This document shows, piece after piece, positions 14,546 to 61,569 of a stretch of 64,000 bases of DNA. The notes under the pieces were generated by a model. That model did not search any database. It was not told the origin of the DNA and was given only the letters and a program-made list of their open reading frames with translations. The DNA is from Moniliella sp. 'wahieum' (taxonomy: Eukaryota). A program made the translations under genes and the position numbers. The stretch is from positions 1-64,000 of the forward strand of contig RSEE01000151.1 in NCBI GenBank assembly GCA_003971905.1. The letters run 5' to 3'. Each line of letters starts with the position of its first letter. Within the stretch, counting starts at the first letter, position 1.

Positions 14546-14617
14546 GGGCGGATAGCTCAGGGGTAGAGCGCTTGCTTAGCATGCATGAGGTCCGGGGTTC
14601 AATTCCCTGTTCGTCCA
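14546..14617 (+). tRNA. tRNA-Ala(AGC), no intron
   Basis: GGGCGGA/TTCGTCC-A acceptor with G3:U70, TAGCTCAGGGGTAGAGC D arm, TT-AGC-AT anticodon loop, GGTTCAATTCC T loop, followed by a T-run. Confidence 0.95.
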
Positions 14618-15102: not shown

Positions 15103-16799
15103 TCAAGGCTCGTCCATCGGTTGGAGTGCGGCGGTGGTGAGTTGACGAACAGAGAGCTTCCCTTGGCTCGGCTGTTGTGCCAGAAACGGGCTCCCACCAC
15201 TGTCCCACGACGGCTCCCGTTGCCGCCACGGCGCGGGCGGGAGCAAGTCGCGCGCCATGTCCGACGGCGCAGCGAACGGGTTGGGGTTGCACATCGGTTC
15301 GGAAAAGTTGGTCATGCTCTCCAGCGCGGGCCGGCGCGTAGAGGGCACGGGACGCCGGCCCAGCAAAAACGAAAGTCGTTGCTTGGATTCCTGCAATAAG
15401 CCTCCACGTTCCTTGGGAGAACTCGAAAGCGAAGACTTGCTGGTGCTCGCCGTCGGCACCCGCACCGCATCCCTCACCCCCCACGCATTCAGCAGCACCG
15501 ATAGATTAATCGTCTGCTGGGCGTGGGGCCGAAGGGCAAAAACTGCATTCGGTCCCCGGACCCAGAACAAAGATTCCGCCCGGCGCCGACCGTGCCGCGG
15601 GGGAAGGGCGAAGGCGACGCAGGTTGGGCGTACTCTTTGCTGGCCGCGGTGTCAAAGTGGGTTCGTCAGCGTACCCCTTCAGACCCAATGCTTCGGACGC
15701 TGTGCGTTTGGGGTCGACATAGAGCGGCAAAGAGAAGGAGAGCGTGCGTTGGAGCGCGGCCAGCTCACGAATCGAGCCGGGGCCAACGACCAAGAGGGAG
15801 AGACCGGGCGGGCCAGCGAGCTCGGGTGCAATTGGGCTAGCTCCTTGAGCAGCCTTTGGAACGAGGGGCACGTCCAGGAGGAGGGGAAAATGACGACCGT
15901 CTTCTTGTCCAGCAACGTGGACAAGCGGACCGCTACGCCATCCTCCTTATACACCACCGCCCTCCCGGCATCTGCGACCTCCTGGGGAAGAGGGCGCACC
16001 TCTTCCAGTTGACCGTCGTGCTCTGCTTCCGCCACCGCCGTCCGGGGCGCAGGCAACAGACTGAAGTCCACCACGGCCGAATCGGGCGAGGCTACAGAAT
16101 CGACGACCGGCACACGGGGTCCACTCGGTTTCTTCCCTTTTTGCAGGGAGGTGCGACGGGCAGTGCGCACGCGGCGAAAGTCGCGCGGGGTGAGAGAGCC
16201 TTCGGAGGTTTGGCTAGACACGGTCGAAGCTACCGAGACAGAGAGAGCGCGGTGCCGAGCGTGTCACACGACTGGCCATGGACAAGGGAGTGGGTCCGAT
16301 CGTACTCGGACGCGGACGCGGCCGAGGTGGTATCGGAAACAGACAAGTTGTCCATCACAGGTGCTTGCTCCCGTTGAGCCTCGGACGAGTGGGCACTGGC
16401 CGCGGCTCCGGGCTGGGCATAGGCCTCAGAACCGGTGTCGAGGTGGGTGCCAAGCCACTCGCCCGCGTCGGGGGGGAACACGCTGGGCTCCTCCACTGCG
16501 GATTGGACGCAGCGCCCCAGCGCGCCAAGACGGGGAGGGAGGCGTTGGAGGGGAGGCGGTGCGGCGCGGGCTCGGTGCGGCGCGGGCGACGGGAAAAGGT
16601 GCTGGGAGAGAAGATCTGCGGTGTCGTCGTCGGCAGCAGGAGACGGCTCGGGGGGCTGGGGCGCGGCGGGGTGGGGGTGGGGACGGTGGTGGTGCGGCTG
16701 CTGGCGGGTGTGGGTGGTCTGGGTGCTGAGGGCGCTGGCGGCGGTGTTGGAGCGTGCGCGTGTGGGCGGCACAGCGTCGGGTGTGGGGGAGCTGTGCAT
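15103..16799 (-). CDS. Peroxiredoxin-like 2 (AhpC/TSA-2, AAED1/PRXL2-like) domain protein with a long disordered N-terminus
   Basis: EVADAGRAVVYKEDGVAVRLSTLLDKKTVVIF..., LLVVGPGS..., LYVDPKRTASEALGL and GGIFVLGPG follow the PRXL2/AAED1 motif order. The catalytic segment is atypical. Confidence 0.6.
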
Positions 16800-17170
16800 G
16801 GGAGGGGGGGAGGAGGGGGAGGAGGAGCGGAGGAGGAGGAGGAGGTGGTGGTGTGGTGGTGGTGGTGGCGACGGCGGATGGATGAACGCAGCCGCCACGC
16901 ATTCGCCTGCCCGCTGCTGCCGGCTGCCGCCTGCTGCCGCCCCATTGTCCCCGCTGGGGCTGGCGGTGGTGTACGTCAGCACGCCCGCCGCCCCGCACGC
17001 ACGCCTGCTGCAATTTCAAAAGCAGGTGGCTCCCTGGCGAGTGTGACTAGTGACTGGCACCGTCGCACATCACATGTGACCGCCCATTTCACATGCGCCC
17101 TTCGCAGGCCACATGCTCGCAGCACGCCACGCTGCTCATCGCGAGGAGCGCCGCCGGCGGGGTCAAGTGA

Positions 17171-19880
17171 TTGCCCAGCGACGAAGAGCACCAGCAGAGA
17201 TCGCCCCAGCGCCCATGCGCCCCTCGTGGCCCCCCAGCAGCCTCCACCCCCGCCCCGTCGGCCGCCCGCCCCCGCCGTCGTGCCTCGCTGCCGCACCCGC
17301 AAGGTCCGATGCGATCGCACCGGCGACCAGCCCTGCTCCCACTGCCGCCGCCGCCAGGAGGCCTGCATCTCCCTCCCCGCGCCCCCACCGCGCTCCGACC
17401 ACCCAGACACGCTCCTCCTCGCCGACCGCGTCCAACGCCTCGAGCACATCGTGGCCCGTGCAGGCCTCGACCGCCGTCCGTCCTGCTTCGGTTCCCCGTC
17501 CTCCCTCTCTTGCCCCGCCGAGCAGGAGGCAGGCCCGCGTCTGCTTTCTGCTTCTGATGCTGGCGGTGCTTCTGATCACCAGCTGCTGCTTCCGGTCCAG
17601 CTACTGCTTCCGATCCGCCTGCTTCCCACCCCCGCCCCAAGCGCCGCCGCTCCCGCTCGCCATCTCCCTTGGCAAGTGTCGTCCAGGCCGTCTCCACAGT
17701 CCGCGACCACGACGGCTTTGACCATCAGATCCTCAATCCTCTGCCCCCCGCCCCCTTCCACAACCACCCCATCTCCGACCGCCTCTCGCATCCTCGCAAT
17801 CCGGCCGACGCACCTCGCTGCCTGGTAGCAAGCGCGCCCGACACGCCCTGCACTAACCACAATCTTGGCCCAGCTCCCCTCGCCCGACGAGTGCGATATC
17901 CTGGTTACCACTTATTTACCCGTGTCGAGTGGCTGCACCATGTCGTCCACGCACCCTCTTTTATCTCGTGGTTTGACCAGTTGCGCGTCAGCGCCAACGC
18001 CCCAATTTTGCCGCCTATGCTGCCGAACAATGGGCTGCGTGTGATTGGCAGCAACTGGCCCTTTGTTTGCCATGCTCTGCCTCGGCCTCTTGTTCGATAC
18101 GACCATCGATCCAGCACGCCATGCGCGCGCGGCGGCGCTGTACGACAGCTCGTGTCTGGCCTTGGAGAAGGGCAAGCTATGGACCACCATACGATCATCT
18201 TGGTGCAAACCTTGATTCTCCATGGTCTCTGGCTCAATGACAATGGCCGCTCCGATCGGCACCACGTCAACTTGGCTGTCGCACTTCGTGTTGCCCATCT
18301 TGCCGGCATTGCGCAGCAGGACAAGCCCGGCTGGAACCCGAACCGCAGCTGGATCTGTTCCGCTTGTCCCGACCCGAGTGCGATGGACTTGACGCCGGAC
18401 GCGGTGCGCGAGATGAACCGACGGTGATTGGAGTCTGGTGTGCCAAGATTATTATACAGCGTCCTCCTGCAGCTTCACTTACCACGTCAACCCTCACCAA
18501 ATCCATATTTCCCACCCGCACAATCTGGGCGACGACCAACTCCTCTCCGCCCCCGCTTCAGTTTCGATCCACCAACGTGCAACGTCCGCCAGCTACGATG
18601 TATGCAAGATCCCATTTGCCCAGACAGCACGCGAGTTTGTCGACCTGGTCAACGACCAAGTGCGCTACCAGGACATTGTGTCGCTCGAGCAGCGTGTGCG
18701 CCGACTGTGGGACGAACTGCCGCTCTACTTTCGTCAAGAGGTGCCCCGCCCGAAACCCACTACGAACGCTTTTTTCAGCGCCCACGCTCGCGTGGCAACG
18801 TCTCTTTTGGCCATCACCAAGGAAAACCGAATTTTGCGGTTGCATCGACCGTTTGTGGTGCGCGGGCTGCGTGACGAAGCCTATGCTGGCTCCACCCGCT
18901 CCGTCCTGGCTGCCGCGGTGGCGCTGCTCAACTTGGGTCGCCAAGGTCGTGGCCTCGCGTTCCCAGGCTTGCGATGGTGGGTGGTGCGCATCCACATTTT
19001 CACGGCCGGCGTGGCACTGTGTATCGGCCTGCAAGCCAGCCGGGCCAAGATTCCGGTCTGTTTGGCGCCCGAGGTGATGCGGCAGTACGTGGGGCATGCG
19101 ATGGATCTCTTATCCGATGGCCTCGCCTGCAGCCCCGCTGCCACCTCCGCCGTGGAGATCTTGCAGTCGCTCTTGCAGCACGCGGGGTACGCTCAGTCGC
19201 CCTTCCCTTCCCGTCTCCTTGCCCAGGAACTGCGTCTGCATCTGCGTCTGCGTCGCGTCTGCGTTCATCTACATCTACATCTGCATCTACATCTGCGCCT
19301 GTGCCTGTGCCTGCCTCTGCCTCTGCCTCTGCGGTGGTGCCGTTTCCTTCCCCGTCTGAGCTGGACCCGGCACTCCCTTTACCCGCCCCCGACGACGGCC
19401 TAAACTTCCCCGCTGGCCGCCCCCTGTGCGCGTGCCTGGCCCGGTACCCGCCCCGGTTCCTGCTGTATCTCCCTCCAGCCTGCCGCCCGCGTCCATGTCC
19501 CGCTCAATTGGCTGACCGACTGGGCGCCAGCGGCGCCGCCGTTTACCGACGATGAGCTGATGGAGGTGCTTGATACATTTTGGAACGGCACTGCTGGTAC
19601 GGGCGCGCCTGCTCGTCAGCTTGACGGCGTGTGTGGTGCCCCCATCGGTTTGGGTGGGCGAGTCCGATCGACTGGGGCCTTGGCAGAGCTGGGCATATGT
19701 CCAGGTATTGGGTTTCGGTGTTCGGGCGCGAATGGGAGATGGGAAATGAGAGATGGGAGTTCGGATGGATCACGTTGGATCGTGGTTGTTAGCGCGGTGC
19801 GCAGCCGGACGGATCGATCCGACCTCGTTGCCCTACGGGAACACTCCGTGTTGCGCCCCCAAATCGCCTCCCTGTTGTAA
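17171..19880 (+). CDS. Zn(II)2Cys6 fungal transcription factor with middle homology region; ends approximate
   Basis: SC..CRTRKVRCDRTGDQPCSHCRRRQEAC followed by LADRVQRLE; VEWLHHVVHAPSF, EMNRR..W..LC.QD, PHNLGDD, LRLHRPF, RWWVVRIHIFTAGVAL. Confidence 0.85.
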
Positions 19881-24411: not shown

Positions 24412-24506
24412 GGCATCGTGGTGTAGTTGGTTTATCACGTATCCTTAACACTGGTTCTCTGCCTTGTTAACGGATAAGGTCCCCGGTTCGAGCCCGGGCG
24501 AAGTCA
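24412..24506 (+). tRNA. tRNA-Val(AAC) with 20-nt intron (24451-24470)
   Basis: Same exons as 20249-20340, complete A box TGGTGTAGTTGG and B box GGTTCGAGCCC, T6 terminator. Confidence 0.95.
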
Positions 24507-24692: not shown

Positions 24693-25816
24693 ATGACCCG
24701 CTACACCAAGCTCGAAGGACGCAAGAAGAGTTCCTCCCGCCTCCAACCACTTTGGTGACCGCGATGCGCCCGACGCAGATGTCCCGCCTAGCGCCCTGCC
24801 TCTCCTCCTCCGGCGTCTGCCCCCATTGACCCGGCCAGCACAGGCAAGCCCGCGTCCGAGTCGCCCCCGCAAGCCAGCGGAAACGATGCTACGGACGGCA
24901 AGGTCGATGTGAACCAGCTGATCAAGCGTTCCAAGCTACTCAAACTCAAACTCAAGAAAGCCAAGACCCCCGAGAAGAGGAAAGCACTGTCCAAGCAGTT
25001 CCACCAAAACGAACGCCAGATTGCCGAGCTGGGGCCCGCCAAGGCACAGGGAAAACGGAAGCGCGAAGATGGCGATCACCGGGGTGGGAAGCGTAAGTAT
25101 CTGTTCTGCAGTTGAGGCAATCAGTGGCTGAGGTACTGACCTGGTTTGTATAGGCGTTTTTACCCAAGAAGAGCGAGCTGAGTACCGGCGGCAAAAGCGG
25201 GTCGAAGAGCGGGCAGCATCGGTGCGATGCTTTGCCTGTCGCGGCCATGGACATGCCGCCAAGGACTGTCCCAATGGCTCAACGCTTCGTCTACCGCACT
25301 CGACTCGGAGACGCCGGGCACCCATGACGTGACCGGGTCGTCGGTGGTTGGCATTTGTTTCCGTTGTGGATCAAAGGACCATACGCTGGCGCAGTGCACC
25401 TTGCCTGGCGGTGGTAAGGGTGCAGCACGAGGTGGGAAAAACTTGCCGTTTGCAACATGCTTTGTCTGTGGCGAGAAGGGTCACCTGTCGCTCGCGTGCC
25501 CCAAGAACAAGGCGCGTGGTGTGTACCCCAATGGCGGTTCCTGCCGCTTGTGCCAGAGTGTGGAGCACCTGGTTCGGGATTGTCCCTTGCGGGAACAACA
25601 AGCCGTATCCGATCCCAAACTGGGCGCGGCGATCGCAGACCAGCCCACCGCGGTGGGCCCGACGAAGATGACTTTCATGCATTTTCTCGTGTCCGCAATG
25701 AAGTTGATACGGACGAGGCCAAGGCCCAGCTGCAAGCCAAGGACCTTGCTCGCCGACGGGCTCCACCACCTGCGGCGGCCAAGAAACGCGAAACCAAGAA
25801 GGTGGTTACCTTTTAA
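24693..25816 (+). CDS. ZCCHC9-like protein with four CCHC zinc knuckles; intron ~25093-25153
   Basis: MTRYTKLEGRK; CFACRGHGHAAKDC, CFRCGSKDHTLAQC, CFVCGEKGHLSLAC, GVYPNGGSCRLCQSVEHLVRDC; C-terminal KKVVTF. Confidence 0.85.
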
Positions 25817-26739
25817 CTTGTTATGAATCCCTTTGCCCATCAGTCTTTCATTGTGCCCCTTCGAACATTTGTTTCCCTTTTACGGAACCGCTGGGGCGCT
25901 GGACAGGCCCCGATGGATGCACTTACATAGAACGCGATCAACCAGAGCCGTCCTCGATAACGCGTCTCCTGCGCTCGGCACTCAAGAAAAAAACACATCA
26001 GTTGTATGATATCAGGCCTCTTTCAGCTGCCAACACCCGTTGCCTCCCCGAATGCCAACAACTATAGCACCATGGGGTCTGGGCTTGGCATCGACTGCGA
26101 TGCATCGCCCATCCCGGAAGCGGGATGCACTTCGGCATTACCATTCACCCCGCTTGCCAACATTGCCAATCGCCTTATCGGCCAAGGTGGAATGACATGG
26201 CCGCCAGCCCCATGTGAAGATTGCTACTATGGCAACAGTACTTCAAAGGCTTACTATGCACGGCACTGATGCGTTCAAATACGTCTTTCATGTTGGCTCG
26301 CCACCCTGTGCTCTCTTTTAGAGTGGAAGCGGCTGAGGCCCTGGCCGGGAGTGTTAGAGAAGAATCTGTAGTTGATGCACGTCAACCTAGCAGCAGAGCT
26401 TATGGTATAGACCCACGAGGAGGTCCATGGTGCAGGTAATATCCCTTTCATGGGATGCCACCATCTCGATCGCGAGACAAATCTAGTAGGACGGGTCCAA
26501 TCCGGTATGATCAGATTTTGAGATAGGGAACTCGGTTGACGATCGATGAAACATGAGGAACACAACCATGACACGACGGGGCGACAGACAAGAACAAGGG
26601 AGCGGGTATCGAGCGAAACTCGAGGACTCGACAGAAGAGCCTAGGGGAGCATTCGGCACAAAAGGACTGCTGCCATGGACACGCACGACCAATTGCAGAG
26701 GCGCGCAGAAACTAGTAATCGCTGCGCGGTGGGAGGGTG

Positions 26740-32809: not shown

Positions 32810-32915
32810 TGCACTCGCCGGGATTCGAACCCGGGCAACAACTTGTAACAGCTCCTCGTGATGGAACCCCAATGGACATGGGAAAGTTGCATCTTAACCA
32901 CTTGATCACGAGTGC
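32810..32915 (-). tRNA. tRNA-Gly(CCC) with 34-nt intron (32845-32878)
   Basis: GCACTCG/CGAGTGC-A acceptor, CAACT-TT-CCC-A[intron]A-AGTTG anticodon arm, GGTTCGAATCCC, T6 terminator. The anticodon lies in homopolymers, so TCC cannot be fully excluded. Confidence 0.9.
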
Positions 32916-34028: not shown

Positions 34029-34556
34029 GTACACTCCGTACTCTCACGATGAATCGTGTCTACCCATATATCTGCTTTCGAACTCTGCTCGTCGATACTC
34101 CTCTGTCCAATCGCAAGTGGTAGGTTCGGTGCCGCGGTAAGAGCCCATTATACCCGTCGGCTCCACGCGCTACTACCGCGTCTACGATTATAACAAAAAA
34201 ACTCCTATATCTTGCCCCACAGGCCACACACCGCGTCCGGAGTTGTCCACCTATATAGTAAGTACCTCACGGAGTCATCCCCCCAAATGGTCTACACCAG
34301 CAGATATCAGTACGCCGTTGTCATTCCGTTTTCGCACCTCACATCAAGACGTCTGCTTTCCACGGGTGTGGCATGTGGTGGCACTATGAATGAAGGACCG
34401 GTCCAAGGGTTGGAAGATGCAACAGTACACCTTGTAGCACCTTGGGACAAACCGTGTTTGGTGATTAGCCCAACGACAAAATGTTTGCTTAACTTTGGGC
34501 AGAAAAAGGATACAGAGCCGACAGCGGTCCATGTAAGGTAGGAGCGAAAAAAGGGA

Positions 34557-34652
34557 TCTCCCCTCTGGGAGTCGAACCCAGGACATTCAGAGCGGATGGA
34601 CTCCACGAAAACCAATTACAATCTGACGCTCTTCCAACTGAGCTAAGGAGAG
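34557..34652 (-). tRNA. tRNA-Tyr(GTA) with ~23-nt intron (34593-34615)
   Basis: CTCTCCT/AGGGGAG-A acceptor (C1:G72), TAGCTCAGTTGGAAGAGC D arm, TCAGA-TT-GTA-A[intron]C-TCTGA, GGTTCGACTCCC, T6 terminator. Confidence 0.95.
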
Positions 34653-35498
34653 AACTTGCTTCGAAGTGATGCATTTTGGCATTTGGAGCTCAATAGGCGT
34701 GCGAGCGGCTGTTTACTCCATTTTTTTTCTCCTGCTACGCTGGTGTTCGCACACCTGTCGATACGCCTTGTGTCGGCAACCGAGTTGATGAACTCACCAG
34801 CCACACGAAAATCCCAAACCTTCTCATCAGCCTCGCCCAAGTATCTCTTGGCAAGAATGTTATCGGGCTTCTCCTATCAATTTTCATGGAAGCACATCGC
34901 ACAGAGAAAAGTTGGCTTGTTCTACAATACAACACCAGCCACCACAATGGTCTGCTCTTTCGATCGGCCTGGTTACTTGGAGCCAAGCGGGGGCTGGCTC
35001 AGCTGCCTGCTGGCTGCGTCTCGAAATCCAATACGTTCGGAATTTCCCGGAGCGAACTGGTGACAGTGTGTCTACCGTGCGGGGACGCGTATGTATCCAA
35101 GATCTTTTCGCCCGATTGGCGGGGATCAGGTATGCACAGTGCAGCTATGCCAGCATTGACGCGTTTGCTGACGGCGACGCCTGCTATAATGTGACGGATG
35201 GGGGTCTGTCGGAGAAGTTCAGGACAACCGGGTTTTGGCACACTCTTCTTTCCGACCCAAAGGCGCGCTTTGCCTTTTGGAGCTAAATCGCATAATGACG
35301 TAGCGATAAAACAAGTAGTTGTATGTATATCTAGTCTCCGTATGCGTAATGCGCATACTTGGTACCACGACCAAGTGGAGGTGGAGGTGGGGGCACAGAG
35401 GGAAGGAAGGATTACGACAAGAGAAAAAAGAAGGGGGCACCGTAACTAAGGATCAGACGTGATTTTGGGTTGGAACAGTCGTTGGAACAAGTTCCCCT

Positions 35499-38400
35499 TC
35501 AGTCGACAACGTTTCCGTTGGCGATGCGTTTACCTTCGGCTGTGGCCGGCGCAGGGGAGGCAGAGAGGCGCGAGGTAGGGATGGCAGAAAGGTGCGGCGG
35601 ACGTCTCCCACCACAGGCAATCCGGATGGCCTCAATTGTGAACTGGACCATCATCGCCGTCCGAAACTTGTAGTCCTCCCACTTGGGTCGAGGAGCAGAA
35701 CGAGGGGGGAAGCGGCGCGCGAGCCACAGGTACAACAAGCATGTCCGATGCAGCGATTCGAGCTTGCTCAGGGTATCGACATGTACTTTGGGTGCGGTCC
35801 GGTCGACAGAGGCGGCTGCGTCCCGACGACGTGCGTATGCCAACACCGATGATGACTCGCCCTTTGCCTCTCCCGCTGCCTTTGACCCATCTGGGTTATC
35901 CGAAGCAGACGCCTGCCAATTAGGAGGTAGATCGATCAGGGGGTTGACCGGTTGCTGCTCCAGCGCGGTAAATGGAATCTGGTCGGCGCCTTTGGCAAGC
36001 GCCTCGGCTTCCAACTGCTCCATCTGCAGCAGTGTAGGTAACATGCCGCTCGCCTCGATCGCCTGGTCAAACAGGACGGGTGAGCCCTGGATAAAGTGAC
36101 GAGCAAAAGCCTCAAAGGCATCCATCACCCGCGGATCCCGCATGTTCGCAGGCGCATCCGAGAAGAGGAGCTGCTGCTCAATCGTCAAATGCTCACCCGA
36201 ATCCGATGGGACGAGTTTCTCGGCATCGGCGGCCTCGAGTCCATCTTTGGCCTGCTCCAAAGTGCTTTGCACATTGTTCGTGTCCGACCAACGAGCCCTT
36301 GCGACCTTCTCAAACACTTCTAGCACATTGAGTTGGTCAGCAGCGTTGGCTTGGAAAAAGAGGTCCTCGTCGATCTGAACCAACATCTGAGCATCGCGTC
36401 GTAGGGCCAGAAGCGACCGTCCGGCCCCGTTGGTAGGCGAGGGCTCTTCGTTGGCAAGCGAGAGCTCCCTGTCGGCAGACGAGGGCTCCTCGTTGGTAGG
36501 CGAGGGCTCCTCGTTGGTAGGCGAGGGCTCCGCGTCGGTAGGCGAGGGCTCCGCGTCGGTAGGCGAGGGCTTCGTTGGCAGGCGAGGTGCGTGGCGAGGG
36601 CTCTTCGTTGGTAGGCGAGGGCTCTTCGTTGGCAGGCGAGGGCTCTTCGTTGGCAGGCGAGGGCTCTTCGTTGGCAGGCGAGGGCTCTTCGTTGGCAGGC
36701 GAGGGCTCCCTGTCGGCAGACGAGGGCTCCTCGTTGGTAGGCGAGGGCTCTTCGTTGGCAGGCGAGGGCTCCTCGTCCACAGCACCAGTCTCAATCGTCA
36801 GATCCGTTGTGTCTTGATCAGCACTTGCATCGGGACTAGGGAGAGAATCAGCCAATCTGGCTAGGTCGACCGCAGCCGCTGGTGGGACCATGAAGGCGGC
36901 TCGGGGGATGGGTTGGGAAGGCGCTTGGAGCGCCTTGACCAGCACGGCGAGGTCTTTGGGTTGCATGGTGGTAACGTTACCCTGCAAGCCTCCAGTGGGG
37001 CCCTCGTACCCGCCTGCCTGCTCGGCAATTTGCCTGATCTGCGTGCTGGTCATGTTTTGGACGCCGAGTTGGTCGTCGTACTTGGTCAGTCGATGGAACA
37101 CAATCCGGTTGATTTTCCTGGTCCAGAGGCAAAGTCAGCTTTATGAGAAGTCCAAATCGCAAGAGCAGGGAAAGGTCAAACGTACAGGCCCAAGCCATGT
37201 TCCAGTCCAGCGTCCTGGCTGGCCACCATCACATGGTAGCCGGAAGTATGATCGTTGAACAAACGGATCTGCTCAGCGAGCGTCTCGGGGGGTAGCCCAT
37301 CATACACAACGGCACACATCAACCCAGTGTTGTTCCACTATGCGTTTGACATCAAACACCCGGTCGCGGGAAGAAGTGACGAGGCAGTCTCCCCTTCGAA
37401 CCCGACCAAAATCATTGTTAAAAGACATGGACTGCACTTCCATCGGTATCTTACGTTGGTACTGATGGATGTGCACCGTGTCTCCAGTGGCTTTGGCAAT
37501 CTTCTCGATCAGCGGAATGACGCTTTGCTCGCCACATAGATGGAGCTCCTTGGCGGGCACGCCCAACAACGCATTGGTCCACGCATGGCCACGTTCGGGT
37601 CCAAGATCATTTGGATCTCATCAATCACCGCCACTCCACCGGCACTTCCGGTACCACCTCCTCCACCGTGCACGAGGTGAAGGTGGCCGAGTCCTCGAAC
37701 ACGCGTTCCTCCTCGGCGGTAAGTAAGTTGCACTTCCGCGTTTGCTCCCCTAGCTTTGGTTGGGCAGAATTGATGGGTACCAAATCTCGTGTGCGCGTAG
37801 GCGGAGCGGACTGACGTACAACCCGGTCTTGGCATCCATGAGGCACTTCAGGGCATGCTCTGTTCGGCCACTGTTGCCTGCGCCGACGTGAAGGTGAATC
37901 TGACGGGTCATGCCGTGCGTGATGGGATAACGGTTCATAGGTGTACGGTAGTCCAGCGCCTGGACCAGATTCCGGATCCGCTCTGCTTCCGTGATTGCTG
38001 GCTCAACGATTTGGAAAGTGAGCAACGGGCTTTGGCTAGGTGTCACCAATGCCTTCTCTACAAACTTGAGGAACATATTGGTGAGCAGTCGGCCAATCAC
38101 TTTGACATCCGGTTCTAGCGCCAACGTTGTCCGTAGTTTCTCGAGCGGCCATCCTTTCTGCTCGAGTTCCTCGAGGAAAGTAGGGTGCCGAGAGCATACC
38201 GTATTTCAGCCCGCATCCTGTTGGACCAAAGTTCAAGTAAGGGCCCGAGAGCGGGATGAGTGGGGTGGGGGGGGTGAGAGGGGTAATCTTGAGGTGGGAA
38301 ATAACGAGGCGTGCAATTTCGTCCGTCACACCATTCGCGGGCATCAAGTCAAGGATGTAGGGATTCTTGCTAAAGTCGGGCAGATGATTGCCAATCCTGA

Positions 38401-39485
38401 GAACAATCTGTTTGGCGACAGCAGCTCGACAGGACTAAATTCAGGAGGAGCGGGTGCATTGTCATCGCAATCCTGGAGGTGAGGTTGATTAGGCAACGAG
38501 GAGCTGGTGCGCTGGGTGGTGATATCATCTGAGAAGAATGAGGTGAAGTAGGGGCTGGGGCTAACTGGGAAAGAGTTGGTGCTGGAAGTGGCATTGGGGG
38601 GGTCACTACCAAGAGGTTTGGCGTTGCCAATGGATTCTTGGGAGCCCGATGTCGCGCCTGGACCTCCTTTTGCAGTTTCCTTGATTTGGGCCGCACTGGA
38701 GGAACGGGGTTGGCACTGTCGCTAGCGTCGGCGGAGCCCGTTAGGTCCTTCGGTGCACCCTGCTTTGATTTGGGCGACACGGGAGGAATGGCGTTGGCAC
38801 TGCCGCTAGCTTCGTCGGAGCCCGCTAGGTCCCCTTTGCATCCTGCTTGATTTGGGCTGCACTGGAGGAACGGGGTTGGCACTGCCGCTAGCTTCGACGG
38901 AGCCCGTTAGGTCCTTCTTGCGCCCTGCTTTGATTTGGGCGGCACTGGAGGAACGGGGTTGGCGCTGCCGTTGGATTCGACCGAGGCCGATTTGGGGGGC
39001 GGGTCCGTGTTAGGTTTTGGTTTTGGCTTTGGCTTTGGTTTGGTCGGCTGAGGGGGAATGGGCTTAGCACTTTCGCTGGATTTGTCCGAGGTAGAAGGGA
39101 CACTGGTCTCCTCTTGCACGTCCTGTTTGGGTTGTTTTGGGTTGGGGAACTTGGCAGGAGCGGGGCTGAGATTAGGGTCGGACTTAGCTTTGGCCTGTGG
39201 GCTTGTGGAGGGGGGCTTGCCCTGGGGGATGTTGTCATTGGGGCTGGAACTGGAGAGACCGGCATTGGGGCCAGCTTCGCTGTCGGGGGCTCGCGCTGCG
39301 TTGGGGGATGGATGGTGGACAGGGGTGGAGGGGGTTGTGGGGGCCGGAGGCGCGTGGCTGCCGGTAGATGGCGTGCCCGCGGGGGCGGCGGAGGCGGAGG
39401 TGGAGGCGAGCGCGTGGCGGACGAGCAGACGGCGGCTGGCCAGCACACGCGCCGGCTGAATGCGCGCCAGGGAGGCGACAAGCAT
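35499..39485 (-). CDS. SUV3-family mitochondrial RNA helicase homologue with degenerate ATPase motifs; intron 37118-37185
   Basis: Presequence-like MLVASLARIQPARVLASRRLLVRHA; IHLHVGAGNSGRT, PLRLRAHEIW, CNLLTAEE, SCTVE, VAVIDEIQMI, AKELHLCGE, GDCLVT, LPPE, KINRIVF, SQI-like TQIRQIAEQAGG; Suv3 C-terminal LESLHRTCLLYLWLARRFP. Confidence 0.85.
36428..36777 (-). repeat. 21-bp coding tandem repeat (~16-17 units) encoding [N/D]EEPSP[A/T] inside the SUV3-like gene
   Basis: GGCGAGGGCTCTTCGTTGGYA units on the + strand, including a variant sub-block that occurs twice. Confidence 0.95.
38681..38975 (-). repeat. ~84-bp coding tandem repeat (~3.5-4 units) encoding DLxGSxEASGSANPVPPVxPKSKQGA
   Basis: TTGATTTGGG unit starts at 38681, 38765, 38847 and 38930. 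Confidence 0.9.
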
Positions 39486-39971
39486 CGCAGCAGGCAGCCT
39501 AGCCGATGGCAGAACACGCCGCCGCTCTTCCCAACCGCCGGCTTGGGGCGGCAACCTGTGCTCCCTCCCACCCGCTACAAGAAGCAGCCCGTTGCAGTGG
39601 CCAAAAATACCTGCTCGGTGCAATGCCCCCCCCGGGAGAAGGTACGCTTCCGCCTGCTGCGGAACCAGGCCGGGCCTGTGTGGCGCCGCACAATTGAAAA
39701 CAGCATCGCCTGCGGCATCACATGCATCACATGTGATAGCCGCCATATGCGGCCACGTGACATGCCACCCTTGGCCTGCTTTCGACTTTCACTCGTGTCT
39801 GCCTCAGTCCCCCCCAGAGGCCCCTGCCCAATCAAAGCACTGCCTGCTGCCGCCCGCACCCATCCCAGCCACGCTTTTCGTGCCCCCACTCCGCGCGTCC
39901 AAGCGCAGACCCACCCCACGCCGCATCTGCTACCGCCGTGGCCACCACCCAGAGCGGCATCCAGGTCCTCC

Positions 39972-41445
39972 ATGCTGATGTGATCCAGTGTCGCCCAAGG
40001 TAAGGGTTTGCGACCATGGGCGCGCTTCGTGCTGTAGGCCCTTGAGCTTGTGGTCCAACGCAACCTGGACGAAAACGACAGACCAATGGTTTCGGTTTTT
40101 GTCGCCCCCTCCTAGTTTGCCCCCAAGCAAGACGTAGCCGCCTATCCGCATATCCTACCTGACGATTTCGCCGCCGCTTTGGCCTCCATTTTCCTCAGCC
40201 CCCTTGGGAGCCAGGATGGCCCAACTCCTCAGACCAGTCCCCGGATTTGCCGCGCCGCGTGCCTCGCATTTTTTCCCAGGTGTGGAGGAGATGTACCGTC
40301 ATGGGTTTACCCATTGGGGTCGCCGATCAGGCGAGTCCCTTCCTTCAGGCCGAGGTTTTGAGCAAGCAAATGGGGGGCACATCCCGCCCCGCCTTCTTCC
40401 GCGGTGGCTTGTCACACGGCTCTTTCACTTGTCTATCCCGATCATACTTACTTTGGTCACAAGGAAACCAGTCCTTATTCTCCTTCATCTTGTGTCCGAT
40501 CTTCAGTTCTCCTATACGCTCCTTCGGGTGACCATGGGGTCATCAGGCCAATCGATCGCGATCCCAAACCTTCGCTTTCCCTCATCAGCCGCAATACGTG
40601 TCTCTCGCCCAAGGTGCGTGCGCCCCGTATCACCCATCTCTCTCACGTCTTGTTCGGCGATTCGGAGGCATAGGAAATGTCGTATGAAACGCTCCGAATG
40701 ATACAAGTGCTCGATGCCACTCTTTCCACTTTGGCAGTCGAGATTCGTCAAGTTCTCTAAGATAAAGTGTACCTCGCACATGACTACCATTAATGGTCCT
40801 CGCACTGTAGACCCTTTGAAAGCACTCTCCAGTGTCATCTTCTCGGGTATGATCAACATTGCGGATGCGTTAGTTGATGGTCGACCGGCTGGTAAACCGA
40901 TCCGGACTGATTGGCAAAACGTGTTGCTTGGGATTCCGTTTGCGTTTGTCTTTGTTCCATGCTACTCTCCTGGAGGCAAGTGCCATGAAGTGCGCACTTA
41001 CGAACATCAGTGCTCCTAGTGCTCACTCACTACTTGTTCCCCCAAAATGGCTTCGCGCTTCGCTTCCGAAATGCCTTATTAGTTCTGTGATAGACTGCAG
41101 TGTGGCCGGTGTGACCCCCATGTTTGTACTCATTACCTTTTCCCCCTCCAAACTCCTTGTCTCTCGTTCTGATGGTCGAGGGCACGTATGGGGAAAGATC
41201 CTCTCCCTCATCATGCGTAGACGTCGTTGGCGTCTCTATAGTGGTACTGCCCTCGCAAATGCAATCAGCACCGAAGCGTCGGTCGACGACCAAAGCGTCC
41301 AAATTTAGAGATCGCAGCGTGGATCTGCTCTTTCAACTTCAAAAAATGCATTTCGTCAGATGCATCCGAGTTGATCGATGAGTTCGACAGCGAGCTGTCC
41401 GCCACCAGCGGCCTTTCGCCCAGTACCCAGGGTGGGAGCCACACC
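39972..41445 (+). CDS. Uncharacterised intron-rich gene upstream of VMA12; structure uncertain
   Basis: Splice signals GTAAGG ~39999...CTGAC...CAG ~40198, GTGCGT 40614...TAG 40673 and CTGTAG 40810 join coding-like segments (LSPK|EMSYETLRMIQVLDATLSTLAVEIRQVL; PLKALSSVIFSGMINIADALVDG; LEIAAWICSFNFKKC). No family recognised. Confidence 0.4.
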
Positions 41446-42624
41446 ATGCCCAAGCTTCTGCTTTCGGCGGAAGCCTCCTCCACACTCCACTCCCTCTTCT
41501 CGGGACCGAGCTGGATGCGGCTGTGCGGTCCGAACTAACCGTGGCTCTTGAGCAGGGTACCCTCCCGCCCCCATCTCCCACAGCAGAAAAGACCCAGGAC
41601 CCACCGACTTGCCTGCCATCCCTCCTTCTGTTCCCAAGGTGGTGCACCATGCTCTCTTATCCAGGTGGTTGAGGCCATGCGCGATGCGGAGGGCAAGGCC
41701 CCACCCTGGCCAGCCTGGTGAAGGGTGCGACGGTCTACCACCCTCCGCGGCCGGTGTACAAGCGCCCCCCCGAGTTGGATGCGCTCCTGGCGCGGATCAA
41801 GGCGGCACAGGACAAGGCGGCGTACGAAGCCATGGTGCACGGAGACGATGTGTCTCTGTCTGGCAAACCAGGCATGCACGGAGCGGGTGTGCCCGCGGTT
41901 GTGCCTCACGAACCTACCCTCCTTGCTGCCCCCCCCATGGACGAGAAGGAAGCCTGGCGTCAGATGCGCTCTGCCTTGTCGGCCATTGCCTCGGTTTCTT
42001 CTCATATGGCAGGCGTTGTGACGGCAGTATGGCAAGCGGGCGGAACAGCGTCTGTGGTATGGGTAGGTGCTTTCCTTTCTTTCTGTTGGCTTCTTCCTTG
42101 GACACGAGACCTGACACGCTTTTCAGAAAACTCTGACCGCCCTCGGCCTGGCCCTGATTGTGGCTGGGGCCGAGACGTTTTTGTACATGCGTGGCTTTGG
42201 CTTTTTCCAGCCTAGCGCACGTCATTCACCTTGGCCTGAGCCGGTCTCTGCATCTGCGCCTTCCACCCGGCCGCTGCCTACTGCCACCCTGCCCAGCGAG
42301 GATGTCCTGGCTCGGTTGCGACAAGAACAGGATCAAGCCATCAACCAGCATCTCGCTCACCACCCTCCTCCCGTCCCCCCCACCCCGTCCGACGCCGACG
42401 CGAAAAACAGAGCAATAAGACCCACACCACTCCTCGGCCGTGGCCAGCCGCCGGGGAGCCCGCAAGCGCAAAAACAAGTAACCATCACCTCCGCTCGCGC
42501 GCTACTTCCCACCAGTGGATTTGCCTCCTGGAGCTATGTATCAACTGTGGCCCGCTTCCACCTTACCTGTTTTGAGGAACCAACAATCGTGACAATGAGA
42601 AAGAGAGATGACGGAGATGGATAG
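41446..42624 (+). CDS. VMA12: V-ATPase assembly factor Vma12/Vph2 (TMEM199); intron ~42060-42126; 3' end uncertain
   Basis: LVKGATVYHPPRPVYKRPPELDALLARIKAAQDKAAYEAMV...WRQMRSALSAI followed by hydrophobic helices ending AGAETFLY. Confidence 0.78.
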
Positions 42625-43366: not shown

Positions 43367-45408
43367 ATGAAGTACATCTGCGTCTCCGGCGGTGTCATCT
43401 CTGGCATTGGCAAGGGCGTTATTGGTGCGTGTCTCCCAGCTGGGTCTACCCATCCAACCACCGGTCTCCTCCCTTGCCTGCTAACCTACCATCCTTAGCC
43501 TCTTCGACCGGCCTACTGCTCAAGACTCAGGGGCTCAAGGTCACCGCCATCAAGATCGACCCGTACATGAACATTGACGCAGGCACCATGGCCCCTACCG
43601 AGCACGGTGAGGTGTTTGTGCTGAACGACGGCGGTGAGGCGGACCTGGACTTGGGCAACTACGAGCGCTACCTCGACGTTACGCTCCGCCGCGACAACAA
43701 CATTACCACGGGCAAGATCTACAGCCAGGTGATTGAGAAGGAGCGCCGTGGTGACTACCTGGGCAAGACGGTGCAGATTGTGCCCCACTTGACCGACGCG
43801 ATCCAAGAGTGGATTGAACGCGTGGCGCGCTTGCCCGTTGACGACACAGGGGAGGAGCCCGATGTGTGCATCATTGAGCTGGGTGGCACGGTGGGTGACA
43901 TTGAATCTGCCCCGTTTGTCGAGGCGCTGCGTCAGTTCCAGTTCCGCGTTGGCCACGAGAATTTTGCGTTGATTCACGTGTCTCTTGTGCCCGTCATTGG
44001 GGGGGAACAAAAACCAAGCCGACCCAGGCGGCGATCCGCGATCTGCGTGGTCTGGGCCTTGTGCCCGACATGATTGCCGCCCGGTGTGCGCGCCCGCTGG
44101 ACCGGGGCGTGATCAACAAGCTGTCCATGTTCTGCCACGTTGGACCGGAGCAAGTGCTGGGCGTGCACGATGTCAGCTCGACGTACCATGTGCCGCTCCT
44201 GCTGCAGCACCAGGGCATGGTCAAGTACTTTGAGAAGCGTCTGCAGCTCAACTTGGGCTCCCTCACGCCCGCCATGCAAGCGCGGGGCGCGGCGTTGCGC
44301 CAAAAGTGGAAGGACCTCACCATCTCGGTCGACCGGGCGATCGAGCCGGTGGAAATTGTCCTGGTGGGCAAGTACACTTCGCTGCACGACTCGTACATGT
44401 CGGTGGTCAAGGCGTTGGAGCACGCGGCGATGCGCGTCGGTCGTACGCTCAAGTTGACCTGGGTCGAATCGACAGACTTGGAGCCCGAAACGCAGAACGA
44501 CAACCCGGTCCGGTACCACGAGGCATGGCACTCGGTTTGCTCGGCCCGGGGCATCCTCGTACCCGGTGGGTTTGGCAAGCGGGGTACAGAGGGCATGATT
44601 GCCGCGGCCAAGTGGGCGCGTGAGAAACGGGTGCCGTTCTTGGGCATTTGCCTCGGCTTCCAGATTGCCGTGGTGGAATATGCGCGCAACGTGTGCGGCA
44701 TGACCGAGGCCAACTCGGCGGAGCTGGAGCCCAACACGCCGGAACCGGTGGTGGTGTACATGCCCGAGATTAGCAAGACCCACCTGGGCGGTACGATGCG
44801 CTTGGGCCTTCGCCCCACCATCTTCCAAGACGGATGCGAGTGGTCGCAGATCCGCCAGCTCTATGGCGACCAACCAGTCGTCTGGGAGCGCCACCGTCAC
44901 CGCTACGAAATCAACCCGGCCAAGGTGGAGCAGCTCGAGAAGGGTTCCGGCGCCAGCGCCGACGAGGAACCGTACCTGGCGCCCCGGGCCCCTCCGACGC
45001 GGCAGCCTTCGTACCCTATGGGCGAGCTCTTCCTCCCGTCTTCCGACGCATCCACTGGCCCGCCGGCCGAGAAGTTGGTCTTTGTCGGCAAGGACGAGCG
45101 TGGGGCGGATGCAGATTGCCGAGATGAAGGACCACCCGTATTATGTTGGCTTGCAAGCCCACCCGGAACTCGTCTCGCGGCCGCTCAACCCGTCGCCGCC
45201 TTTCCTCGGCTTGGTTGCCGCGGCGGCAGGCCGTCTGGACGACCAGATTGCGCGCCAACGCGCCTCGTTCAAGCCCCCGCACCCGGAGGAGGTGATGCTG
45301 CTCGAGTCGGAGGTCCAGCGTCGTGCCGAGGCCGACGCGCCGAACGCGATCGAGCGCTTTATCAAGCCCGCTGGCACGCCCCCGGGCACGGCCACCCCCG
45401 TTTCGTAA
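43367..45408 (+). CDS. URA7: CTP synthase; intron 43425-43498
   Basis: [71 protein letters not shown] (catalytic Cys), [13 protein letters not shown]. Confidence 0.97.
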
Positions 45409-53386: not shown

Positions 53387-54827
<1,441 letters not shown>

Positions 54828-58772: not shown

Positions 58773-61569
58773 TCAAGCCAGCGTGGCCGCCGCATGCGAC
58801 AGCACCACCTTGCCCGTCTCCTTGACCTTGGCCACAAACACCACCTTCTTGTCCTCCTTCCACAGCTCCGTCACCACCGTCTCGCCCGGGAAGACGTCGA
58901 GGCAAAGCGCACCTTGACCGACGAGATGGGGCCGTACGTGTCGACGATCGCCTTGGTCGCCACGGCAAACGTGCAGAGACCGTGGAGGATCGGGCGAGAA
59001 AAGCCGCCAATCTTGGCAAAGTCGGGATCAATGTGCAGCGGGTTAAAGTCGCCGCTGAGGCGGTACAGCGCCGCCTGGTCCGGGTTGGTCGTACGTTCCA
59101 CCACAGCGTCCGGCGCGCGCGTCGGCGGCGTATTGACCGCACTCGCTTCCCCACGGTCATTGCCCGTCTTCTTGCCGCCAAAGCCACCGGCGCCACGGAT
59201 AAAGACGGTAGACTGGTTCTCAAACAGTAGGTCCCCAGACTCCTTTTCGTACGTCTTGGTCACCGTCGTCACTGCCGCCGCCTTGCCCTTGTCCAGCACC
59301 TCCAGCAGCGCAGGCTTGTTGACCAACGTGCCCGCCACCGGGATCTCCTTGTAAATCTTCAGGTACTGTTCGCCGTGCAAGAGCATCATCGGGCTAAAGT
59401 TGGGCAGCCAGTCGAGCGGGGAGCGAGGACGAGGCGGCAAACTGCGGAATGACACCAAACGTGGGCAAGGCCTGGAAGTCGTCCGCTTGCTCAAACGTGT
59501 AGTTGAGCTCAGTCGCCTTGGCCCCGACACCGAGGTTGTACAGAATGACATCCTTCTCCTCGTACGTGTACTCCGGCTCAACCGCCTGCTGCTTGGCCTC
59601 CCGGACCAACTCGGGGTCCTCGGGATCAATCAGCGACGCCTCCCCACCTTCCTCAGCCTCCTCCACCTCGTCCCCCTCGCCATCCAAGTTGGCCATAATG
59701 TCGCCCAGCGCCTCCTGCGTGTCCGCGGGCCAGCTGGCGCGCTCCGGGTCAAAGTCAAAGATGCGCGTGATGCGCGCGGCGACCTTTTCGGGGTGAGGGG
59801 CGTCTGGTGGCTAAACGCCACTCCGCCCGCACGCTCCCAGCGCACAGCGGCCACCCAGCCCGACACCTCAAACAGGCCCTTGGTCACCTCGTCATTGTCC
59901 TCCGAAGCCAGGTAGGCAACCAAGGGCGCGACAAAGTCGGGCTTAAACGCATCCACCATCTCCTGGGGCCAAATTGTCGCCGTCATGGCCGTGCCAGCGT
60001 TGGGGCAATGGTATTGGCCAAAATGTTGTACTTGGCACCCTCAATCGACAGGGTTTGCGTCAGGCCCAGGATGGCCGCCTTGGCGTCGAGTAGTTGGCCT
60101 GGCCAAAGTTGCCATACAGGCCAACGGCCGAGGTGGTGTTGACAATGCGGCCGTACTTTTGTTGGAGGAAAATGGGCCAGGCAGCCTTGCAGATCGAGTA
60201 GGTGCCACGCAGGTGCACGGCATCACCACCTTCCACTCCTCATCCGTCATCGAGGCAAACGACTTGTCGCGCAAAATGCCCGCATTGTTGATCACGGCGT
60301 GCAACCCGCCAAACGCCTTGACCGCCGCGTCGACAATCTTCTGCCCATCCTCCACCGAGCCAATCGCCGGCGCCGCCTTGCCGCCCGCCTTCTGGATCGC
60401 CGCCACACCTCGTTCGCATTCTTTTCCGAAAAGTCATTCACGACCACATTCGCACCCGCCTTGCCAAACAAGAGCGCATACGCCTTGCCCAGCCCAGCGC
60501 CGGCACCCGTAATCAGCACCGTCTTGCCATCAAACCGCACCTCGCCTCCTGCTCATTGGCAGGGGCCTTCTTGGCGCGCTCGAGCAGCTCCAGGTGGTTG
60601 GCATCCGTAATCGACGTGGGGTACTCCACTTCGCCATCAAAGTCGAGAATGTCATCAATCTTGGCCTTGATCGCAGCGGGGGTAAACGTGTCATCGGCGG
60701 AAGACGTGGCCCTTGGTGCGTTGACGACGCAGCCCGGCATTGAAGCCGGCACCCGACTCGATCAGCTGACCCGTCACATCCGCATTGGCAGCACTGACAA
60801 GGTAGGCCACCAGTGGCGCCACGTACTCGGGCTGCAGCTTCTCCAAAATCTCCGGCGGCATCACCGTCGCCGTCATTTGCGACGCGGCAATCGGCGCAAT
60901 CGTGTTGAGAATGTTGTACTTGGCGCCCTCGATCGACAGGGTGCGGGAAAAGCCGTAGAGACCCAGCTTGGCCGCACTGTAGTTGGCTGGCCAAAGTTGC
61001 CATAGATGCCAGCGGGCAGAGGAGATGTTGATGATGCGCCATACTAGAGCGAGGCAAAAAGGCAGGGGGGGGAGGGGAGGGGGTCAGCAAGGACCACAGC
61101 AAAACAACGAGAGAGAGAAAAACAACATACCTTTTGCTTGCGCATGTAGGGCCAGGCGGCATGCGCACAGGCGTAGGATCCCGTCACGTGGACCGCAATG
61201 ACCGCGTCAAACTCAGCGTCCGTCATGGCCTTGAAGGACTTGTCGCGCAAGATGCCGGCATTGTTGATCACAATGTCGATCCGGCCCCACGTGTCGACAG
61301 CCTGCTTGACCAGCTTGTCGCCCTCAATGTTCGAGTTGTAGTTGGCAATCGCCTCGCCGCCGGCGGCCTTGATTTGGGCCACGACGACGTCAGCCGCCTT
61401 CTTGCTCTTGTCCTCACGGCGGGGCCCAGGTCATTCACCACCACCTTGGCGCCGCGGCTGGCGAGGAGCACAGCATACGCCTTGCCAATACCGTTGCCGG
61501 CGCCGTGACGATGGCCACGCGGTTCTTGAAGGAGATGGCGCCGTTCTCGAGCTCGGGAAATTCAGACAT
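58773..61569 (-). CDS. FOX2: Peroxisomal multifunctional beta-oxidation enzyme type 2 (two SDR dehydrogenase domains plus hydratase 2); intron 61044-61130
   Basis: Two Rossmann motifs (AIVT..GNGIG and [14 protein letters not shown]), two [27 protein letters not shown], hydratase-2 motif [30 protein letters not shown]; ends [10 protein letters not shown]. Confidence 0.96.

Follow-up and report, generated by a model that had tools for sequence, protein, structure and literature searches.

We analysed a 64,000-nucleotide stretch of the genome assembly of Moniliella sp. 'wahieum' (contig RSEE01000151.1, positions 1 to 64,000; hereafter the window). On its minus strand lies a gene of the family of SUV3, the mitochondrial RNA helicase, in which the motifs of the ATP site have been altered by substitution. 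The coding region, delimited by stop-to-stop open reading frames (ORFs), three-frame translation, Pfam matches and sequence matches to the Protein Data Bank (PDB), runs from 39485 to 35499, with an ATG start at 39485 and a stop codon at 35501–35499; all coordinates within this gene refer to the minus strand. It is made up of 14 frame segments, separated by 12 frameshifts of 1–2 bases and one intron, and the conceptual product has 1312 positions (1299 whole in-frame codons, an intron-split Leu codon and 12 X). Once the frame is corrected, none of the 1299 codons, over all 14 segments, is a stop.

The predicted protein opens with an Arg-rich presequence, MLVASLARIQPARVLASRRLLVRHALAS (39402–39485). 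Its first 60 residues include 5 Arg and neither Asp nor Glu, a composition that suggests a putative mitochondrial targeting signal. A Pro/Ser/Lys-rich N-terminal extension contains a tandem repeat of 3.7 copies with a period of 82 nt (38681–38989), read as units of about 28 residues (KSKQGAPKDLTGS..ANPVPPV.P). The SUV3 N-terminal domain (37900–38448) extends from PPEFSP up to just ahead of Walker A. Within the helicase core, an intron of 68 nt (37185–37118; GTACGT...GCTGAC...CAG) interrupts the final Leu codon of motif V. A second tandem repeat, with a 21-nt unit present in about 16 copies and encoding EEPSPxN heptads (36428–36777), has been inserted after the helicase core, ahead of the C-terminal domain. 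The C-terminal region (35502–36416) bears the signature LESLHRTCLLYLWLARRFP (35762–35706).

The intron position is shared with close relatives: the homologue P0271 reads into the intron at the same spot ('..GLNL YV..'), and P0001, P0004 and P0005 end there. We observed more generally that P0151, P0271 and P0007 run on into intron or untranslated sequence, as in '..GLNL' followed by 'YV..'; these entries look like ORF-level predictions made on short contigs, with ends that mark introns and not true termini. The G+C content at the three codon positions (GC1/GC2/GC3) of the N-domain and core together is 0.61/0.39/0.66, which is a coding pattern. Two composition tests were considered and set aside. 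GC3 and codon periodicity do not discriminate decay here, the GC3 of 0.66 lying inside the neighbours' range of 0.57–0.85, and a codon-position test on the EEPSPxN units was uninformative, with just 9 differences in 8 units (5/1/3 by position). Long ORFs, of up to 349 aa, also run antisense to the SUV3-like gene (38934–39983, plus strand) and to other genes; they have no Pfam match and are probably by-products of the G+C content of about 60%, not genes.

By Pfam, PDB sequence matches and phylogeny, the gene belongs to the SUV3 family. Three fragments match the Pfam family DEXQc_Suv3 (57.2, 18.1 and 59.8 bits; cut-off 27), and the last ORF matches Suv3_C_1 (31.8 bits, cut-off 22.5) and SUV3_C (29.4 bits, cut-off 27). 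Fragments of the protein also match solved human SUPV3L1 chains and the Suv3 chain 6f4a_B; the C-terminal 313 aa gave no match among PDB sequences at E<=0.01. In the tree the gene falls in a clade with P0271 and P0001 (Shimodaira–Hasegawa-like approximate likelihood ratio test, SH-aLRT, 98), nested among basidiomycete SUV3s. A tBLASTn search found no second SUV3 locus in the 64-kb window, where the gene is thus single copy.

The core motifs are strongly altered. Walker A (motif I) reads GAGNSGRT (37884–37861) where the canonical form is GPTNSGKT, with Pro replaced by Ala, Thr by Gly and the Lys by Arg, the latter encoded by CGA (37866–37864). Motif V reads ASQDAGLEHGLGL (37223–37186; ASQDAGLEHGLG(L) with the intron-split Leu) in place of ASDAIGMGLNL, which makes it two residues longer than the canonical motif, with three invariant positions changed. 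Motif VI reads QIAEQAGGY (37032–37006) in place of QIAGRAGRY/F, by replacement of Gly with Glu, Arg with Gln and Arg with Gly. Alignment to human SUPV3L1 chains sets GAGNSGRT opposite GPTNSGKT and QIAEQAGGY opposite QIAGRAGRF. An invariant Leu has become Arg in motif Ia (PLRLRAHE, 37786–37809), and an invariant Phe has become Ser in motif IV (CLVTSSR, 37366–37386). Motif II (DEIQ, 37622–37611) and the HLCGE stretch are intact.

These changes stand out sharply against the family. The Lys of Walker A (G-K-T) is kept in 190 of the 190 SUV3 homologues fetched, GRAGR in all 111 that reach motif VI, and DEIQ in 170 of the 177 with a motif II string; for motif V, all 136 homologue strings follow the consensus, the search pattern itself being the canonical form. 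In an alignment with 109 canonical SUV3s, 69 core columns reach a conservation of 95% or more. The window gene deviates at 18 of them, as compared with a canonical median of 0; every one of the 109 matches more of these columns, and the pattern goes far beyond what chance would give. Motifs I, V and VI account for three deviations each, and the rest fall in motifs Ia, Ib and IV and in the TVEM, RLTPL and YGxLPP stretches. At core columns conserved below 95%, the gene lies inside the canonical range.

The altered motifs result from substitutions and in-frame codon insertions, and several replacements require two base changes in one codon (Lys to Arg as CGA; Thr to Gly). A compensated frameshift hidden in motif V was considered and rejected, the other two frames, read by eye, yielding no canonical motif. 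Judged from the sequence, Walker A, motif V and motif VI are disabled by real substitutions and not by indel noise. The initial annotation was therefore right to describe an SUV3 homologue with these three motifs disabled by in-frame, multi-base substitutions, as borne out by Pfam, homologue counts and codon changes. The strings that it quoted (Walker A with its CGA codon, DEIQ, motif V, motif VI and the C-terminal string) are all present on the minus strand.

In superfamily 2 (SF2) helicases, the Walker A Lys and the motif VI Arg residues are required, and their loss should abolish ATP hydrolysis. For SUV3 itself, one study describes a single Walker A substitution, G207V in the human protein, that abolishes ATPase and helicase activity and acts as a dominant negative (PMC2800237). 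These precedents bear on the possibility that the gene is the sole SUV3 of this fungus and still an active, if highly atypical, helicase, in which the Walker A Arg and other residues compensate for what was lost. The single SUV3 locus in the window, the intact DEIQ and HLCGE, and N-domain distances consistent with simple orthology (or with a young duplicate) would agree with such an enzyme. Three nucleotide-site motifs are altered together, however, and no homologue has a non-Lys Walker A (0/190) or a non-GRAGR motif VI (0/111). The near-neutral pattern of change in the core, described below, also argues against a preserved catalytic machine, and we regard continued activity as very improbable.

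We next compared rates of evolution between domains. The terminal branch of the window gene in the SUV3 tree is 0.89, against 0.06 and 0.26 for P0271 and P0001, both canonical. In a three-way comparison of these sequences, RecA1 shows 34 private changes in the window gene, 3 in P0271 and 1 in P0001, and RecA2 (to motif V) shows 26, 3 and 11, respectively. The window gene has thus accumulated 60 private core changes, spread over the whole core, versus 6 and 12 in its relatives. The N-domain presents a different picture, with 27 private changes in the window gene, 19 in P0271 and 33 in P0001. The helicase core is therefore accelerated about 5–10-fold relative to the two nearest canonical relatives, and the N-domain not at all.

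The N-domain is 45% identical to that of P0271 over 180 columns. Identities among the window gene, P0271 and P0001 in this domain are 0.45, 0.37 and 0.42, and do not place the window gene outside the P0271/P0001 pair; such distances would be expected equally of a simple orthologue and of a young duplicate. Conservation of the C-terminal domain is on a par with that of normal SUV3s: at the 39 conserved columns after motif VI the window gene matches 29, and the medians of 108 canonical sequences sum to 31. The suggestion that relatives might share the motif substitutions was not borne out, since the two closest homologues found are canonical. No relative sharing them was recovered, and a word-index search with a 151-aa fragment gave no match.

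To relate the open frame to neutral expectation, we simulated 15, 20 and 25% residue change over the 730 homology-supported codons, with 400 runs each. Nonsense mutations make up about 4.5% of the non-synonymous changes to these codons, and the simulations produced on average 4.7, 6.6 and 8.1 stops, with 4, 0 and 0 of the 400 runs free of stops. Neutrality thus predicts stops where none is seen, and full neutrality is therefore disfavoured.

The frameshifts required separate treatment. The initial annotation had set the in-frame substitutions of this gene apart from single-base indels elsewhere in the window, but the gene itself contains 12 frameshifts of 1–2 bases and has no continuous ORF. 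We used our own frameshift-aware protein-to-DNA aligner, checked first on the CTP synthase gene of the window and then run against seven SUV3 homologues. Against these seven it places consistent breaks at about 38415, 38288, 38183, 37776, 37633, 37595 and 37329 and crosses no stop. Six of these seven homology-supported breaks (37329–38415) are of the one-base-missing class and that at 37329 is of the other class; most of them adjoin short runs of C, A or G. The other five lie in the repeats, four in the N-terminal 82-nt repeat and one in the EEPSPxN array near 36570. We observed that the 82-nt period is not a multiple of three and that each of the four breaks in this repeat is one-base-missing and falls at the start of a repeat unit, which looks like a context-specific, systematic consensus error.

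Five conserved genes of the window are broken in the same manner. CTP synthase (43367–45402, plus strand), which has one short intron after exon 1, carries two frameshifts, one at 44009 beside a G7/A5 run and one at 45105, and its closest relatives, P0151 and P0152, are intact across both. Its two closest homologues are 91% and 87% identical, and that of Tilletiaria anomala 70%. These two breaks are the clearest sign of uncorrected 1–2-base deletions in the assembly. For the other four genes, breaks were located by continuity of Pfam profile coordinates over overlapping ORFs and by reading the translations by eye. A CaMK-like protein kinase (53900–54500, minus strand) has 3 frameshifts in about 0.4 kb; MFE-2, a multifunctional beta-oxidation enzyme with two SDR domains, a hydratase and MaoC (58776–61561, minus strand), has 5; an insulinase-type M16 peptidase with the motif HLCEH (7720–9797, plus strand) has at least 4; and a protein O-mannosyltransferase (PMT; 2034–3941, minus strand) has at least 2. 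There is no room for introns at the breaks in these four genes.

Since five conserved neighbours are broken alike by 1–2-base indels, the indels of the SUV3-like gene are most probably assembly noise and provide no evidence of decay, and we rejected the frameshifts as proof of a pseudogene. The one-base-missing class makes up 10 of the 12 SUV3 breaks and 10 of the 16 background breaks, the latter reckoned from coordinates.

Noise at the level of substitutions is low. The terminal branch of the window's CTP synthase measures 0.004, and over 652 columns the protein shares 92% identity with P0151; the divergence of the SUV3-like gene is therefore not a genome-wide effect. The same figure bears on whether the odd motifs are themselves errors of the assembly that produced the indels. 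The abundance of 1–2-base indel errors in the window is what would recommend this idea; the motif changes, however, are substitutions and in-frame codon insertions, several of them two-base, and the 60 private changes extend over the entire core. An artefact of this kind is scarcely credible.

The ATG, the acid-free presequence and the GT, branch site and AG of the intron are all intact. Together with the open frame, the unaccelerated N-domain and the normal C-terminus, these features fit a maintained gene in which the constraint on the core has mostly been lost. We favour, at about even confidence, a still-maintained, ATPase-dead derivative of SUV3. The initial annotation had likewise proposed a catalytically dead gene that is still kept; the open frame, the intact signals and the undegraded N- and C-terminal domains speak for this, whereas the core changes, which are near-neutral in kind, speak against it.

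The principal competing explanation is a pseudogene, that is, a SUV3 copy, duplicated or unitary, that no longer functions and is drifting, with some of the frameshifts being real lesions among assembly errors. Gene duplicates usually degenerate. Several observations point this way, most of which also weigh against a maintained gene. The private core changes of the window gene have a mean BLOSUM62 score of -0.32, close to the -0.58 expected of single-step mutations without selection (the observed value is reached in 432 of 5000 simulations), as opposed to +1.11 for the private core changes of the relatives, reached in 0 of 5000. Taking P0271 as the base, retention by conservation class is 0.75, 0.85, 0.67 and 0.47 in the window gene and 1.00, 0.97, 0.83 and 0.56 in P0001; a similar excess of loss in all classes is what blanket relaxation would give. 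The branch lengths of the window lineage are nearly equal in the core (0.37–0.40) and the N-domain (0.46), which also fits neutrality of the whole gene if the N-domain is near neutral in every lineage. Nearly all helicase motifs are altered, save motif II and the HLCGE stretch. Frameshifts are denser in this gene (12 in 3.9 kb, about 3.1/kb) than in the five neighbours (16 or more over about 8.9 kb, which sets a lower bound of about 1.8/kb), so that some of its breaks could be real.

Further points against a maintained gene come from the searches and from the motifs. No Pfam match to Helicase_C (RecA2) was found at E<=0.01 when 10 fragments were scanned singly, RecA2 being split in three by a frameshift and the intron. 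An exhaustive search of representatives gave a best match of 49% identity and a search with a 105-aa fragment one of 59%, both with canonical motifs. The RNA-contact motifs Ia, Ib and IV are altered at invariant positions as well, which weakens a role as an RNA clamp. The Ser of motif IV, by PDB sequence match, occupies the position of human Phe373, a residue described as contacting RNA (PMC13261141).

Against a pseudogene stands, above all, the open frame: at the level of change seen in the core (about 0.22–0.25 per site), neutrality predicts about 7–8 stops in 730 codons, and none is found in 1299. Neither the N-domain, with private changes in the range of its relatives, nor the C-terminal conserved columns, at the canonical level, has degraded; the start, presequence and splice signals have survived; and the frameshifts resemble in kind those of conserved neighbours including CTP synthase. 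We consider a pseudogene less likely than a maintained gene, but a serious rival.

We propose that the still-maintained derivative belongs to the nuclear genome of an Ustilaginomycotina fungus and descends from the mitochondrial RNA helicase SUV3. Its site for ATP binding and hydrolysis would have been destroyed by replacement of the Walker A Lys with Arg in a reshaped P-loop, loss of both motif VI Arg residues and rebuilding of motif V, with several residues of the RNA-contact motifs altered as well. The 12 frameshifts, on this proposal, would be errors of a noisy assembly and not lesions of the gene. The protein would most likely be incapable of ATP hydrolysis or RNA unwinding, and may be retained for a job that needs just its shape and its N- and C-terminal domains. 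Candidate roles include filling or modulating the partner site of the mitochondrial degradosome's 3'-5' exoribonuclease, pairing with an active SUV3, and clamping RNA; most plausibly, the dead protein would rely on these two terminal domains to serve as a partner, or as a competitor, within the degradosome. ATPase-dead SUV3 is reported as dominant-negative in human cells (PMC2800237), and by analogy the co-expression of a dead copy with an active SUV3 might be harmful, a further difficulty for this proposal.

A bolder reading is that this gene is the only SUV3 of the organism. An aerobic basidiomycete would then degrade its mitochondrial RNA with an ATPase-dead SUV3 that serves the exoribonuclease purely as a structural partner, and unwinding would be performed by another helicase or dispensed with; we consider this improbable. 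In a slightly less bold variant, the gene might be a young duplicate, retained as the cell's own antagonist or regulator of the active degradosome, by analogy with the human G207V mutant.

How does this gene compare with known systems? It resembles SUV3/SUPV3L1 (yeast Suv3 of mtEXO with Dss1; human SUV3 with PNPase) in domain order, Pfam families, solved-chain matches, tree placement, the intron position of close relatives, the Arg-rich N-terminus and the C-terminal signature. What sets it apart is the loss of the Lys of Walker A, of the two Arg residues of motif VI and of the usual geometry of motif V, the change at 18 of 69 invariant core positions, the 0.89 branch and the two lineage-specific tandem-repeat insertions.

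Helicase folds retained without functional motifs, as proposed here, have been described for the yeast pseudohelicase Utp25p (PMC9539457) and for PriA of Deinococcus radiodurans (PMC4504706). These proteins belong to other helicase families and processes, and their retention is an experimental result, whereas ours is argued from sequence statistics. In plants, a pair of SUV3 and SUV3-like paralogues provides a precedent for duplication of SUV3 followed by specialisation (bioRxiv 10.64898/2026.10.23.761044). Both plant copies are described there as helicases, with ATPase activity reported for AtSUV3, and the duplication is ancient and widely retained; the window copy, in contrast, is catalytically degenerate and known from one locus. 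The engineered human G207V protein likewise has a Walker A lesion and is described as still mitochondrial and as disturbing RNA turnover (PMC2800237). This point mutant was made in the laboratory, its core is otherwise intact, and it slows growth in addition to being dominant-negative, whereas the window protein has many further changes, which could alter or remove such interference. A literature search found no SUV3-derived pseudohelicase; most subscription journals were outside its coverage.

In the mitochondrial RNA degradosome SUV3 acts as the conserved motor, and its ATP site is kept in every homologue that we sampled. If the gene is indeed a retained ATPase-dead SUV3, it would imply a function that is separable from unwinding, such as scaffolding, partner binding or regulation, and it would be a natural counterpart to the engineered dominant-negative mutants that have been used on mitochondrial RNA decay. 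If it is instead a decaying duplicate, the event is an ordinary one, and the chief value of the case is as a warning on inferring gene decay from unpolished assemblies.

The remaining features of the window are of a more general nature. A tRNA-Ile(AAU) gene (34554–34653, minus strand), which from its length of about 100 nt is probably intron-bearing, lies some 850 bases past the 3' end of the SUV3-like gene. Three more tRNA genes were identified: one at 32810–32915 (minus strand) by Rfam only, tRNA-Ala(AGC) at 14546–14617 (plus strand) by both ARAGORN and Rfam, and tRNA-Val(AAC) at 24412–24506 (plus strand) by ARAGORN, below the Rfam gathering score. The plus strand also encodes a Zn(2)-Cys(6) fungal transcription-factor ORF (16218–17825), a CCHC zinc-knuckle protein (25182–25823) and a Vma12-like V-ATPase assembly factor (41673–42212), which are ordinary fungal neighbours with no link to SUV3.

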